Below, piece by piece: positions 5,368 through 54,568 of a stretch of 64,000 nt of DNA. The stretch spans positions 37,710 to 101,709 of IMG/VR virus record IMGVR_UViG_3300034107_000136; one strand, written 5' to 3'. The notes beneath the pieces are model-generated. The model was given only the letters and a program-made list of their open reading frames with translations. It was not told where the DNA came from and ran no database searches. Both the position numbers and the translations under genes were made by a program. Source of the DNA: a virus. Within the stretch, counting starts at the first letter, position 1, and each line of letters starts with the position of its first letter.

Positions 5368-5709
5368 ATGGCTACTACAGTTTTTGAAAAGACAGATCTT
5401 GTACTTATGGATGGCACAAAAATATCTATGCGTCCATTAAAGATTTCACTCCTTCGTAAGTTCATGAAGAAGTTCGATACCGTTGTTGAGGTTGCCTCAA
5501 GTAACGTTGATTCAATGGATGTACTTATTGATTGTGCATTGATTGCAATGGAGCAGTACGCCCCAGATCTTTCAACAGATCGTGAGAAGTTTGAAGATGT
5601 TGCTGACATTAAGATGGTTTACAAGATCATTGAAGTTGCTTCTGGTATCAAGTTGGACGCAGAGGGAAACGATCAGGCGATGGCGGCGGCACTACTTGGT
5701 CAGAACTAG
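5368..5709 (+). CDS. Tail assembly chaperone (gpG-like)
   Basis: Between tail tube and tape measure; in-phase slippery G-GGA-AAC at 5664-5670. Confidence 0.85.
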   Translation: MATTVFEKTDLVLMDGTKISMRPLKISLLRKFMKKFDTVVEVASSNVDSMDVLIDCALIAMEQYAPDLSTDREKFEDVADIKMVYKIIEVASGIKLDAEGNDQAMAAALLGQN

Positions 5710-6071
5710 ACCTCGCTGTCCTTGAATCAGAAATATTTCTTTTAGGTAATTGGAAGGATTATGAAGAATTAGAAGATAATCTTTCTATGCCAGAATTAAC
5801 GGCAACCCTAACAGCAATAAGAGAAAGAGAAAACAATCACAATAAATTCTTAGCAGCAATTCAAGGAATTGACCTTGATGGAGAATCTCAAGAAACCAAA
5901 GGGCAGAAAGAATGGGAAGACCTTAAAGCAAGGGTATTTAGCGGTGGAACTGCAAAAGATTCAAATGATATAACATCCCTTCAAGGGATAAATGCTTCAC
6001 AGGCTGGTTTTGGTATTGGCGCTGGTCTTTCTTACAACAATGTTGGAGATGGATCGGGTAGTTGGGCATGA
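5670..6071 (+). CDS. Tail assembly chaperone -1 frameshift extension (gpGT-like)
   Basis: -1 frame from 5670 open (RSGDGGGTTWSELDLAVLESEIFLLGNWKDYEELE...) and continuous with ORF 5787-6071. Confidence 0.85.
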   Translation, partial: RSGDGGGTTWSELDLAVLESEIFLLGNWKDYEELEDNLSMPELTATLTAIRERENNHNKFLAAIQGIDLDGESQETKGQKEWEDLKARVFSGGTAKDSNDITSLQGINASQAGFGIGAGLSYNNVGDGSGSWA

Positions 6072-6106: not shown

Positions 6107-9100
6107 ATGGCAGATGTAAATGCAATCATTAATATAGACATTAACTCGTCTTCTGCATTGGTAAATCTTAAAAGACTTGAATCGCAGATAGATCAGTTTA
6201 ATCGGTCTGTATCAACAAGCAATGCAACGGCTGCTGCATCACAACAAAGTTTAAATAGAGCACTTCTTGATGGCATAAATAACACTGGATTATTTACTTC
6301 AAAGATTATTCCAGTTGAATCATCAATGAAAAGATTTTCAAGATCTTTAGATGAGGGTCGTTTATCTCTTGGAGAGTATACAAGATACGCTGGATCTCAA
6401 TTACCTGGATTAAGCAAGGTGTTTAGAAAAGAATTTGACTCCATTGAACAAGTTGCCACATCTAGAGTTAAATCAATGCAGACTCAATATCTTGCCCTTG
6501 GTAAAACGGTAGATGGAGTTACAAGAGCAATCTCTTCAACTCCAACTGGATTAGCAAAAGGTATGGCTACAGACTTAGCCATGACTCAACAACGACAACA
6601 AATATTCAATAAATTACTTGATGATGGTTCTACTAAGTTGTTGAACTGGGGTAAAAATACTCAATGGGCTGGTCGTCAGTTGATGGTTGGCTTTAGCCTT
6701 CCCCTTGCTGCATTTGGCGCTGCCGCTGCCAAAACATTCATGGAAATTGACAAAGCAACTATTTCACTTAAAAGAGTTTATGGAGACTTAAGCACAACAA
6801 AAGAAGAGTTAGATTCAAATGTTGAGGCAGTAAAAGGTCTTGGAAAAGAATATACTAAATACGGTATAACACTAGCAGAAACAATATCCTTGTCTGGACG
6901 TGCGGCAGCCACTGGTGCAACAAATGAAAAACTTATGGCTGCAACTGAACAGACACTAAGATTTGCAACACTTGGTCAAATGGACTACAATCAAGCACTT
7001 GATACAACAATTTCTCTTCAAACTGCATTTGCAATTTCCAATGAAGATCTTGGGAAAACTGTAGATTACCTTAACGCTGTAGAAAACCAAACAATTCTTA
7101 CAATGGAAGACATGTCTGTTGCTATTCCAAGAGTTGCCACGGTAGTCAAGGGACTTGGGGGTAGTGTACAAGATTTAGCAGTAATGATGACAGCAATGCG
7201 TGAAGGTGGAGTAAGCGCAGAGAATGCTGCAAACGGTTTGAAGTCAGGTCTTGCATCTTTGATTAATCCAACAAAGAGGGCATCTGAAAGTTTGGCTGAT
7301 ATGGGTGTCAATCTCAAAGGCATCATTAATCAAAATAAGGGTGACCTTATGGGTATCGTTACTGAATTTGGAACGGCAATAAATAAACTAGATGAATTTA
7401 GTCGTCAACAGGTTCTTGAGCAGGTATTCGGTAAATTTCAGTATGCAAGAATGAGCGCATTATTTACTAATATTACAAAAGATGCTGGACAAGCAGCAAG
7501 AGCAATGGATCTTGCTGGAATGTCAGCAGAAGATCTTGCAAAGATTTCTGAAAAAGAACTTGGACAGATATCAGAATCAACATCTGTAAAGTTTCAAGCA
7601 TCAATGGAAAAACTTAAAATTTCCATCGCACCTATTGGAGAGGCATTCTTAAAAGGAATCACTCCAGTAGTCGATATGGTTTCAAAAATTGCTGATGCAT
7701 TTAATAATCTTCCAGATGGGGTAAAAAATGCAATAGCAGTTCTTACGGGCGTGGTTGCAGGAATAGGCCCAGTACTCCTTATGACCATTGGTTTGTTAGG
7801 TAACGGTATAGCAAACATAACAAAATTTGTTCAATTTATTAGAAAAAGTTTGGCTGGCATCAAGGGTGATGCATCAGCATTCACTTATTTAGCACAAGGA
7901 GAACTTGAAGCAGTAACAGCAAGCAAGGCGCTTGAAGGTAGTGCTGTTAATCTTACAGATAAATTACTTCTTCAAAGGGGAGCAGTAGTTGGTCTTACAG
8001 CAGAATACGAAAGATTTGCTCGTGCCGCAGGAATTGCTAGAGCAGAAATGGGACTAGTAAGTGGAGCGCCCATGCCCAGTGGTGGAGGTAGGCAAGCAAT
8101 ACCAGTACCAAGAATACGCAAAAATACAGGTGGAACAATTCCAGGTGTTGGAAGCACAGACACAGTTCCTGCAATGCTTACGCCTGGTGAATTTGTAATT
8201 AACAAAAAAGCAACTGCTCAAAACCTTCCACTGCTTCATGCAATAAATGATGGAAAAGGAATGGGAGGATTTAATAAGGGTGGGCAGATTCCTGGGGTAC
8301 AGTATTTTGCAATGGCAGGAAAAGTTCTTCCAAAACCCAAAAATGTAACTGTTCCTAAAGGTACGCAATCACCACAAATGACACATACAACACCAAAACC
8401 TATTTTATCAACAATTGGCACAGCAATGCCACAAAGAATTCTTGGTTCAGCAAGAGGAAGAGTTGCTCAGAGATTGGCTAATGCTGGAATTCCAGTTGAG
8501 TTATTAACTGATGCATGGATAAGAAGTCCATTTAATCAAAAACTTAAATCTAAAGTGCAAGGCTCAACAATAACTGATTGGGTAGAAGATTTAAAAGATA
8601 GTCAACTTGGTCCAGCGTACAGAAGAGCAGAAATAAGAGCGAGTGATTTAAGAGAAGAACTAAGAGGTAGTTTTCTTTCTGAAAACACTTATACTCAAGA
8701 GGATTTTGGAAATATAATAGAAGATGCTGCTAAAAGAATAAAACCAAGTTTTAGTCCAGCAATAGATTCTGCATATTTACCAAAACCAGAAGTTTTAAGA
8801 GAATATTCAGAGCAACTTGAGAGTGCTGGATTTTATTTACAAAAAAATGAAGCCAACGGTAAGAATTACATTGTAGATAGCACAGAAGTAGAAAAAAGAC
8901 AAATGGCTTCTTCCTCATACCCTTTAACAAGAAATAAAGGTGGTTTAATTCCTGGTGGAGAAGTAACACAAAGTAGACCATTCTATGGAGTGTTCAATGC
9001 AAAAACAATTGATATGTTTAAGAATTGGATAGGAACTCATTCTGAAGCAATTCCTGCACTTAGACAAACGATATTAAAAGATCCTAAAATGAAGTCAATG

Positions 9101-51229: not shown

Positions 51230-51988
51230 ATGATTATCAGCCCATCAAGAAACTTTATATTTATCCACCTAGAAAAATGTGGCGGCACATCAATAGAGTC
51301 AGCACTAGAACCACATCTATATTGGTCAGATATGATTCTTGGCAGTACAGATTTTGGTGAAAGAATGCAACAACTATACTATGATCGATACAGTCGTGAA
51401 GAGGTAAATGAATATATGTTGTGGAAGCATTCAACTGCAAAAGATATTCATGCATTCATTGGACACGACGAGTGGAATTCACTCAATAAAATATCTACCG
51501 TAAGAAATCCAGAAGATCTAATCATCTCTTTATATAAGTTTTCAAGAATGACAATTAAATATCATATTGGTAGAATTCATAGGTCAACTTGGAAAGACTA
51601 TTTAATGTCAGAAAACTTTCCACAGGTATATCCCTATACAGAAGGTTATATTCATGCCTATGTTGAATCACATATGGACGATAAGGGTATCAACGGTTTT
51701 GTAAATATACTATTAGATAAAGATTATCAATTTATTAAGCCTCAATTTGAAAGATTAAAGATAGATAGCAATACAAATATAGGCCGTGTGTTTGATTTAT
51801 CTGATATAGATAATGGGTGGCAAGAGATTCTCGAAATGCTAGATCTTCCTTGGTACACACAATTAGAAAAACTTAACTCAAGTGAGCATGTAGACGTTGA
51901 ACTATCTAGTAGATCAAAAAAAATAATTAAAAAGCATTTTGCTATTGACTATGATGTGCTTCCACAGTATACTGGTATCAATTGGTAA
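51230..51988 (+). CDS. Sulfotransferase family protein
   Basis: FIFIHLEKCGGTSIE PAPS-binding motif; VRNP.D..IS.Y; F..DY. Confidence 0.8.
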   Translation: MIISPSRNFIFIHLEKCGGTSIESALEPHLYWSDMILGSTDFGERMQQLYYDRYSREEVNEYMLWKHSTAKDIHAFIGHDEWNSLNKISTVRNPEDLIISLYKFSRMTIKYHIGRIHRSTWKDYLMSENFPQVYPYTEGYIHAYVESHMDDKGINGFVNILLDKDYQFIKPQFERLKIDSNTNIGRVFDLSDIDNGWQEILEMLDLPWYTQLEKLNSSEHVDVELSSRSKKIIKKHFAIDYDVLPQYTGINW

Positions 51989-51994
51989 AAACAT

Positions 51995-52068
51995 GCGAGT
52001 GTATCCCAGCGGCTAGAGGACGACGGCTCAAAACCGTTGTGTCGTGGGTTCGAATCCCACCACTCGTA
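51995..52068 (+). tRNA. tRNA-Leu(CAA), short variable loop
   Basis: Cloverleaf; loop CTCAAAA; variable region GTGTC. Confidence 0.85.
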
Positions 52069-52191
52069 CAATAGTTAGACCAGACAATGTACGGACATTT
52101 AATATAAAATAATAAAAACCCTCATAACAATATGCTAATATTGTTACTAAGAGCGCCCCCCTTCTCTCCTAAAAAAAGGAGATGCGTGTAA

Positions 52192-52908
52192 ATGAGGAAG
52201 AATGTGTTAATAGGTTTAATATTTTGGTTAGTAGTAGTTGTTATTGCGGTAACGGCAATTCTTATGACAACAGATGCTAAGGCAGAATCCGATAAGGTAA
52301 AAATATGCCATGCAACATCATCTGAAAAGAATCCATATACGAAAAATGAAGTGGATGTATCAAGCATAAATAATGAAAAGAATAAGTATCTTAATGGTCA
52401 TGGTGATCATGAAAGAGACATCATTCCACCTTTCACTTACGAGTCATCTTCTTTTGAAGGAAGAAATTGGGATGATGCGGGTAAGAAGATATGGGAGAAT
52501 GGCTGCAACATTGTAGAGCCAAGCCCAACACCCACTCCTACCCCCACACCTACCTCAACTCCAACACCTACTGTTACCCCAACACCCACAATTACACCCA
52601 CGCCTACAGCGAGTCCTACACCTACCATAACGCCAACAGAAACACCAACAGCGTCTAGCAGCCCTACTCCCACAGTAGTGCCTAATCCACCCTATGTGCC
52701 GCCTGTTATAGTGCCTGTGCCAAGTAATCCTGTAACACCAACAGTAGTTCCAGAGCCAACTATGACTCAAGAGCCAACACCAATGCCAACAGTAACACCA
52801 GCACCAGTTCCAAGTCCTACAAAGACACCAATGCCAATTCCTACAGCAGTTGATGCTGGCGGGGGAGGGATGGTGGAGATTCCTTTTTTAACATCAAAGC
52901 CCCGCTGA
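52192..52908 (+). CDS. Secreted/membrane-anchored Pro/Thr-rich protein
   Basis: N-terminal hydrophobic signal; ICHAT...NPY...GH..H..DIIPPF...NW...NGC domain; (PT)n linker; [10 protein letters not shown]. Confidence 0.8.
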
Positions 52909-53345
52909 TTCCAGTAGGGATAAAAAAGGACAACTCAGTAGACATTCCAGAGGATATATCAACGGTGGGTTGGTATAAATATGGAGCGGCCCCAGGCTCA
53001 AAGGGGGGGTCAACTGTCATCGTAGGACACCGAGATGGCACTGATCCTGAGCCTGGGGCTTTTTACTATCTTAATAAGTTAAGCAGTAAAAATTCCATTG
53101 TGATTGAATACTTAAATTATACAGCAATCTATGCAGTAAAGAGTGTAAATATAATAAGTAAAAAGAATTTTTATAAAATATCTAAAGATATATTTTCACT
53201 AAAGGGTAAGCCAAGAATTACATTGATAAGTTGTATTGGTCCATATGATAAAAATAAGGGCGGGTATCAGAAGAACATTATTGTTACTGCTGAGCCATTG
53301 ACGGGATACCCTTGGATACTCTACAATAGAGATCTAGACGGATAA
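52890..53345 (+). CDS. Class F sortase domain (reached via -1 frameshift from upstream ORF)
   Basis: IKAPLIPVG...IP.D...[16 protein letters not shown]...F..L..L...LISC.G.YD....Y..NIIV.A. Confidence 0.85.
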
Positions 53346-54300: not shown

Positions 54301-54560
54301 GGGGATGAAAGGTTTCGACCTTGTTGGAATATGTGTGCGGCGTTTCAAGTGGAGTCTTGTAAACTACCAAATTATAATAAATGCAAATACACAAAACGCA
54401 TTCGCCCTAGCAGCATAAGGGCCGTGTGGCAACGGCATAGGAACAGAATCGTTGCATAAAGCACCACAATGTAGTACAATTGCTTTAAACGCTAGAGCAT
54501 AAACGTAACTGTTACACATAGGAATACAATGGGACAGGGGTTCGACTCCCCTCATCTCCA
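54301..54560 (+). ncRNA. ssrA: tmRNA, tag ANTQNAFALAA* (54383-54418)
   Basis: 5' GGGGATGAAAGGTTTCGAC; 3' GACAGGGGTTCGACTCCCCTCATCTCCA; resume context ATAAAT-GCA; upstream TATAAT. Confidence 0.93.
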
Positions 54561-54568
54561 CTGAAAGG

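Follow-up and report, generated by a model that had tools for sequence, protein, structure and literature searches.

A conserved -1 frameshift site that likely joins a class F sortase to its candidate substrate in a freshwater phage

A 64,000-nucleotide (nt) stretch of DNA, called the window below, was analysed from the IMG/VR virus record IMGVR_UViG_3300034107_000136 (101.7 kb in all, with an estimated completeness of 94%), a phage of lake water, and the subject of this report is a locus of two overlapping reading frames in it that is present in 20 public runs, no RNA run being listed among them. The first frame, ORF1 (52192-52908, plus strand, 238 amino acids (aa)), encodes a protein with a signal segment, a small Cys/His domain, a Pro/Thr-rich stalk and a putative sorting motif, and the second, in the -1 frame, encodes the catalytic domain of a class F sortase from strand β2 on (52890-53345, plus strand, with its stop codon at 53343-53345). 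A preliminary description of this DNA had proposed that a programmed -1 frameshift joins substrate and sortase, and this is supported by the comparisons reported here, since the arrangement in two frames is retained by most relatives. The likely means by which one mRNA gives both the substrate and a substrate-sortase fusion is thus a programmed ribosomal frameshift of the -1 type that has been conserved. The same slip is kept in distant relatives with a different heptamer, and for this reason it looks like deliberate recoding and not like a broken gene.

The proposed shift site is the slippery heptamer T_TTT_TTA at 52884-52890 (plus strand), which is in phase with ORF1 and is the sole in-phase heptamer of the XXXYYYZ form in the 55-nt overlap of the two frames. 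An SD-like (Shine-Dalgarno-like) GGAGG, a possible stimulator, lies within Gly codons 15 nt ahead of it (52864-52868, plus strand), and both positions are as first described. The corresponding RNA, U_UUU_UUA, is the heptamer of HIV-1 gag-pol (PMC3458567). In the long ORFs of the window in-phase heptamers have a background of 0.5% per codon, which gives a chance of about 9% of finding one somewhere in a stretch of 18 codons, and the real weight for the shift site comes from relatives that have a heptamer where the aligned codon falls, since at this background chance would be very unlikely to put two distinct canonical heptamers at one homologous position. In the window, the sequence TTTTTTA is found only 5 times on the plus (coding) strand but 26 times on the minus strand, and this strong asymmetry means that the slippery heptamer is rare in the sense orientation. 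From what is known of X_XXY_YYZ sites, tandem tRNA slippage on T_TTT_TTA would give a product reading ...IPFL-NIKAPL....

Behind a TGA stop codon at 52851-52853, the -1 frame stays open over 52854-53342 and reads ...VGWYKYG...VGHRDG...LISCIGP.... Its first ATG/GTG/TTG codon is the GTG at 52965, and the frame has no start codon of its own, no hydrophobic segment and no N-terminal membrane anchor, the last of which belongs to the definition of class F. The downstream ORF reads as the continuation of one protein, devoid of an initiation signal, and since it lacks both a start and a hydrophobic segment, the sortase could be exported only via the ORF1 signal segment, through the frameshift. Profile searches confirm that it encodes the remainder of a sortase and favour class F, as already suggested in the preliminary description. 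The translation of 52854-53345 matches Pfam Sortase PF04203 at 67.5 bits (cut-off 26.6; E=1.2e-18), and the best sortase class is NCBIfam class F NF033748 (E=5.6e-28), which scores 97.5 bits for the window and 109.9 bits for the homolog L003, against 32-39 bits for the next class, although both are below the curated cut-off of 166. The proteins nearest to the sortase part are named class F sortase of Nanopelagicales. The catalytic residues are encoded at 53028-53030 (His, in VGHRDG) and 53232-53234 (Cys, in LISC); the Cys is invariant in both sortase alignments, and the His is invariant in one of them, VGHRDG being kept in every covering row of the other. When the catalytic Arg of β7/β8 was looked for, the group showed an invariant GGYQxN(I/V)(I/V)VTA. 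A search of representative proteins with the sortase part returned 7872 relatives, typically of 200-260 aa and with a transmembrane (TM) anchor.

The frame boundary appears to fall inside the fold of the enzyme. L003 is an in-frame homolog, and in it the NF033748 profile covers MVKIPSL (positions 13-19), upstream of the junction. In an AlphaFold2 (AF2) model of L003 residues 215-413, the sortase domain is an eight-stranded β-barrel of the sortase fold, with a predicted local distance difference test score (pLDDT) above 90 throughout; MVKI forms strand β1 (pLDDT ~97) and VEAPLTPV forms β2, and a Foldseek search with this model finds sortases E, C and A at E ~3e-10 and probability 1.00. In the window, the equivalent MVEIPFL (52870-52890, plus strand) would be strand β1 read in the ORF1 frame, with β2 onward predicted in the -1 frame and the shift site between them, an arrangement that is hard to reconcile with two independent proteins.

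The layout of ORF1 is also as first described, with a signal segment, a His/Cys domain, a PT stalk, a motif and MVEIPFL. Its ATG is preceded at 10 nt by the ribosome-binding site AAGGAG read in the sequence (52176-52181, plus strand). The N-terminal signal segment (52192-52284, plus strand) consists of MRK, a 22-residue hydrophobic stretch and AKA/E, and AF2 models a helix over residues 2-26; ANA/G or AKA/E occurs at the same place in relatives. It is probably a cleavable Sec signal peptide, or possibly a signal anchor. The following small Cys/His domain (52288-52515, plus strand) also occurs in actinobacterial wall-anchored proteins. Across 28 sequences C39, H40, H70, H73 and D76 are invariant and C105 is near-invariant, a residue pattern that hints at a disulfide and a metal site; the AF2 model of the domain has a pLDDT of 80-95 and finds no PDB match by Foldseek. 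Bacterial relatives of this domain are wall-anchored proteins, with a C-terminal LPATG, a TM helix and RR, and Pfam Gram_pos_anchor is found on one of them (P0170). The Pro/Thr-rich stalk (52516-52833, plus strand) has no secondary structure in AF2 and varies in length among strains (protein variants of 225-246 aa). The protein had been called mucin-like, a term that suits its PT-rich linker but not the rest of the surface protein. After the stalk comes a 12-residue motif of the class F sorting type (PTxxDAGGGG type; 52834-52869, plus strand), which is kept in all phage relatives in the alignment and lacks the usual TM helix and basic tail. In the 0-frame product only 12 residues follow the motif before the stop, with the hydrophobic helix and the positively charged tail missing, and in the -1 product the sortase domain occupies their place. 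The end of the 0-frame product, TSKPR and the stop codon TGA (52891-52908, plus strand), is short and not conserved, relatives having R, K or KR before the stop.

Relatives were found for both parts of the gene. A search with the N-terminal domain of ORF1 gave 32 proteins, among which the phage-type relatives (190-246 aa, to ~45% identity) all stop at one alignment column after a conserved (I/V)P-x-L, with the ends FLTSKPR, FLR, SLK, ALK and TLKR directly before the stop; the stop falls in that column too in about 15 more clusters of the ORF1 type (FLR, SLK, ALK and TLKR), and β1 (IPxL) is kept at the ORF1 end in all lineages. An alignment-based scan of IMG/VR revealed a second deep clade, formed by the loci L009, L011 and L012, which come from different samples and are 53-57% identical in the N-terminal domain. 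In these loci ORF1 ends in ...GGGGMAVEVP(V/A)LK on G(T/C)T TTA AAA TAA, and the -1 frame takes up the sortase (INAEIVPVGITSNN...SHRDG...ITCGGG), where 15-43 codons go by before a start codon. Each overlap holds a single in-phase heptamer, T_TTA_AAA, which is aligned with the codon of T_TTT_TTA in the window. The 0-frame stop codon comes directly after the heptamer in this clade and may help shifting. With the sortase part as query, at least 18 phage-type clusters (55-98% identical) were recovered as ORFs of 94-147 aa without N-termini or a TM segment, whereas bacterial relatives (at most 50% identical) have 210-260 aa and an N-terminal anchor. Coincident contig size and source hint that three pairs of ORF1-type and sortase proteins share contigs, P0163/P0221 (2801 nt), P0168/P0225 (1758 nt) and P0240/P0227 (7966 nt). 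Nothing new came from additional scans of IMG/VR, for which P0016, P0001, the alignment of sortases and a degenerate pattern of the junction served as queries, and a metagenome scan gave one actinobacterial contig.

Two relatives depart from this layout. L003 (74-80% identical) is one uninterrupted in-frame ORF of 413 aa, the length of the predicted trans-frame product of the window; its junction, CCT TCT TTG ATG, is not slippery, and the window has a one-base gap against it near the junction. No second in-frame fusion of 227-723 aa was found among 5.8 billion proteins. L010 (IMGVR_UViG_3300008120_007368) has an ORF1 tail and heptamer identical to those of L011, with about 75-80 nt deleted right after TTTAAAA-TAG (L010:3540-3620), so that β2-β3 are gone and what is left of the sortase follows the stop in frame 0; either this copy has decayed or the assembly is chimeric.

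The same fusion could in principle be reached through transcriptional slippage, in which RNA polymerase adds a base in the T6 run, or in the T4/A4 runs of the relatives, and brings a minority of mRNAs into frame. Certain genes of phages and bacteria are known to take this route, the shift site lies in a homopolymer, and no RNA structure that would stimulate ribosomal shifting was found there. Productive polymerase slippage, however, usually needs runs of at least 9 A/T and the relatives have only T4A4, and what is conserved across the clades is an in-phase X_XXY_YYZ, the signature of tandem tRNA slippage, and not the length of the run, which makes the polymerase an improbable source of the shift.

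Equally improbable is that the gene is broken and tolerated, an ancestral in-frame fusion of the L003 kind having lost a base, so that only the 238-aa stalk protein is made and a sortase remnant drifts behind it. The in-frame state of L003, the one-base gap between it and the window near the junction and the decayed sortase part of L010 would fit such a history, and L003 alone would suggest a recent break in the window, a picture that was reversed by the wider homolog search. The break is at the same codon in clades that are 53-57% identical and have different canonical heptamers, and β1 is retained at the ORF1 end of every lineage. Moreover, the -1 frame is under purifying selection. It is open for about 150 codons in every frameshift-type lineage, with the His and Cys motifs kept, and the ratio of nonsynonymous to synonymous rates (dN/dS) in the sortase frame is 0.2-0.4 (0.30 for L009-L011, at a dS of 0.90; 0.20 for L011-L012; 0.38 for L009-L012). 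Within the population of the window, variants in the sortase frame of the Logan contigs are biased to synonymous changes (8 synonymous, 6 nonsynonymous and 0 stops). This is not the behaviour of a dead frame. An N-terminal-domain tree of weak resolution places L003 within the frameshift-type sequences, beside the lineages ending in SLK (support of 82 in the SH-aLRT branch test), which suggests, with modest support, that its fusion is secondary.

A still less probable explanation dispenses with recoding and supposes two separate proteins, a tail-less substrate and a leaderless, truncated sortase translated from an internal or non-canonical start. The short sortase ORFs of 94-147 aa that gene callers report in relatives could be taken in its favour, yet each of these starts at a different internal pseudo-start codon, with none of the positions conserved. 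Counted from the beginning of the conserved domain, between 25 codons (in the window) and 43 codons (in L009) pass before any ATG/GTG/TTG appears, so that strands β1-β2 or more would be missing from a separate sortase, and the GTG at 52965 has no SD sequence ahead of it. Besides this, β1 is encoded in the other frame, and a sortase devoid of such a signal for export would have no way to reach a substrate that is secreted.

Finally, an error of sequencing or assembly, a T7 run read as T6, would give exactly this picture through a one-base homopolymer undercall, but it is refuted in practice, and hardly credible, given that the check for a missing base asked for at the outset showed T6 without an indel in Logan contigs from four runs of four studies (2018, 2020, 2023 and 2024; X2, X3, X6 and X15, the probable source sample being excluded), where 4/4 contigs span the site with 0 gaps and one of them (X15) differs from the window by 16 substitutions, and that at least five database protein clusters from separate sources share the end ...IPFLTSKPR before the stop.

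The assignment of ORF1 as the substrate, on the other hand, is strengthened by the class F sortases of bacteria. Actinobacterial class F sortase loci (80 loci, L023-L102) were compared, and in 54/80 of them the ORF that directly precedes the sortase closes with [AS]xP[TSNG]x[VI][PNAD][AG]G[GDET]G, followed by a short spacer and then by a hydrophobic helix with a basic tail, as in ...APTSIPAGGGGEAG...TM...RR of the Nanopelagicales locus L040 and ...IPSAVPAGGGSS...TM...ARK of L034. Such non-LPXTG tripartite signals lie upstream at L040:1909-2151, L034:1900-2069 and L072:1250-1427. The Propionibacteriaceae version of the motif is VPGGTGGQ, and the single protein of this type that was scanned (L072) matches DUF4397. 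Pfam gives DUF4397 on one of the upstream substrates and a sub-threshold DUF5977 on another, and NCBIfam has no model for them. In 6-7 loci, including the Nanopelagicales metagenome-assembled genomes L040 and L042, the upstream protein has the same Cys/His domain (ICHAT..NPY..GHG.H..DIIPPF) as the phage protein. Among bacterial sortases, the phage enzyme has its closest relatives (40-50% identical) in the class F sortases of freshwater Actinomycetota, and many of these belong to Candidatus Nanopelagicales. The motif of the window matches the consensus found upstream of class F sortases, a match that is based on genomic association. Read in this way, the phage gene corresponds to the host two-gene cassette minus the helix and tail of the substrate and minus the anchor and linker of the sortase, with the frameshift at the seam, and this correspondence supports the view that ORF1 is a substrate with a sorting motif. 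P[TS]x[VI][PN]AGGG, followed by a TM helix and a basic tail, is therefore put forward as a candidate natural sorting signal of class F sortases. No published description of this motif was found, and the literature held nothing relevant on DUF4397 with a sortase or on a phage sortase with a frameshift.

Taken together with the conserved frameshift, these correspondences outline how the locus may work. Normal reading would give a secreted protein made of the signal segment, the Cys/His domain, the Pro/Thr stalk and the sorting motif with 12 further residues, and a fraction of the ribosomes would slip back one base on T_TTT_TTA and go on into the class F sortase catalytic domain, so that the efficiency of the frameshift would set the enzyme-to-substrate ratio. 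The sortase would reach the cell surface only by riding on the signal of its substrate, and there it may cut the motif, either within its own polypeptide or in the 0-frame product, which would be the more abundant, and link the stalk with the Cys/His domain to the wall of the freshwater actinobacterium under infection. Our tentative proposal, which is somewhat less likely than not to hold in full, is that a family of freshwater actinophages took a host class F cassette into one recoded gene, whose self-exported sortase anchors to the wall a PT stalk that bears a Cys/His knob. The uses suggested for such a surface protein in the preliminary description, namely superinfection exclusion, anti-grazing, metal capture and decoration by glycosyl- or sulfotransferases, are speculation.

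Several observations weigh against a programmed frameshift that feeds a wall-anchoring sortase. With regard to the shift, the GGAGG is not conserved, being missing in L011 and lying ~21 nt upstream of the heptamer in L009 and L012, and the earlier suggestion that it acts as a stimulator gains no support from these relatives. Neither folding of the RNA downstream nor an alifold of four loci revealed a structure that is strong or conserved; the folds are weak (z-scores of -0.9 to -2.7), the only element being a 5-bp hairpin on the PVG codons. L003 does without the shift, which is thus not indispensable, and the deletion of β2-β3 in L010 implies that the sortase part can decay. Frameshift-type DNA comes from two clades, and the lineages ending in FLR, SLK and TLKR are known as proteins only. 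With regard to the chemistry, the sorting motif is disordered in the AF2 model (pLDDT ~55), no canonical membrane-retention segment is present, and we infer cleavage and anchoring. A predicted complex of the sortase domain with the motif-bearing end of the stalk (score 0.26, mark 0.32) counts neither for nor against binding.

To our knowledge, programmed -1 frameshifts of phages come almost only from tail-chaperone genes, and otherwise such shifts are found in insertion-sequence transposases and dnaX. The G/GT frameshift of the tail assembly chaperone of tailed phages, reportedly described by Xu, Hendrix and Duda in 2004, resembles the present case in that a conserved in-phase X_XXY_YYZ close to where the upstream ORF ends yields, in a fixed ratio, a short protein and a fusion extended at its C-terminus, the position being conserved, the heptamer varying among phages and an obvious RNA structure often being absent. 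Unlike that shift, the one described here concerns an accessory cell-envelope gene and not virion assembly, and the extension is an enzyme domain, with the shift between β1 and β2. The comparative support for it is as good as for the classic -1 frameshifts. The phage of the window appears to have a tail-assembly-chaperone arrangement as well (5368-6071), in which G_GGA_AAC at 5664-5670 is in phase in the ORF 5368-5709 and the -1 frame is open over 5664-6071, just upstream of a 3096-aa tape-measure ORF (6107-15397); this suggests that the phage also relies on -1 shifting elsewhere.

In bacteria, the dnaX frameshift is stimulated by an upstream SD-like element ~10-14 nt away. Like dnaX tau/gamma, the present site has an upstream SD-like element, here at 15 nt, but this element is not conserved, and in contrast to dnaX and HIV-1 gag-pol a strong downstream stem-loop or pseudoknot was not found, and the second clade has a stop codon directly after the heptamer. 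By its best class match, the sortase is of the same class as those of the chromosomal class F cassettes of Actinomycetota (NF033748, IPR042001; for example L040 and L042), and the substrate motif is of the same type (PTxIPAGGGG), with the same Cys/His domain in several loci. The bacterial cassettes, however, have two genes, with a TM helix and a basic tail on the substrate and an N-terminal TM anchor on the sortase, whereas in the phage version both membrane segments are missing and the parts are joined by the frameshift.

Some gut huge phages carry a sortase B and an adjacent secreted substrate, a module proposed to display phage proteins on the host wall, and according to the same October 2026 preprint sortases had been undocumented in viruses before (bioRxiv 10.64898/2026.10.24.761521). 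The locus in the window is similar in having a phage-encoded sortase with an adjacent secreted substrate. The gut modules differ in being of class B, in belonging to Bacillota-infecting phages above 200 kb, and in having separate genes and canonical signals (motif, TM helix and charged tail), with no recoding.

As for its surroundings, ORF1 is located where a block of 16 tRNA genes ends, and a tmRNA gene lies close downstream (54301-54561); the window has 17 tRNA genes and 1 tmRNA in all. Directly upstream of ORF1 are a tRNA-Leu(CAA) gene (51995-52069) and a sulfotransferase-like ORF (51230-51988), a weak assignment with Pfam Sulfotransfer_1/2 below threshold. The neighbours of the L009 locus are unlike those of the window, being a HAD-like phosphatase and a coiled-coil/TM protein, which suggests that the module moves between contexts. 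In two viral contigs, L003 (5239-5616) and L018 (1288-1700), the next gene after that of the Cys/His protein encodes a homologous secreted protein of ~125 aa, with a signal ...AYALGT followed by ...FPVVGQA...CDSDGV...TNIFTNEFDSVRV; it is absent downstream of the window copy, and may be a recurring partner of the Cys/His-domain family. No match to the locus was found in GenBank phage records by blastn or tblastn, and PHROGs has no family for the ORF1 part or for the sortase part. The host, assigned by inference, is probably a freshwater actinobacterium of the Nanopelagicales.

With this locus, a class F sortase joins the few phage sortases on record, which have so far been of class B only, and it does so in a design where the enzyme depends on its substrate for export. 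If the proposal made above holds, this would be the first known case in which a programmed frameshift ties an enzyme to the substrate on which it acts, and it would indicate which substrate motif class F sortases naturally use. What these sortases do physiologically is reported to be still unknown (PMC13251363, 2026), and the candidate motif makes the question testable. Additionally, surface remodelling by these phages could matter ecologically, since their probable hosts, the Nanopelagicales, are among the most abundant freshwater bacteria.

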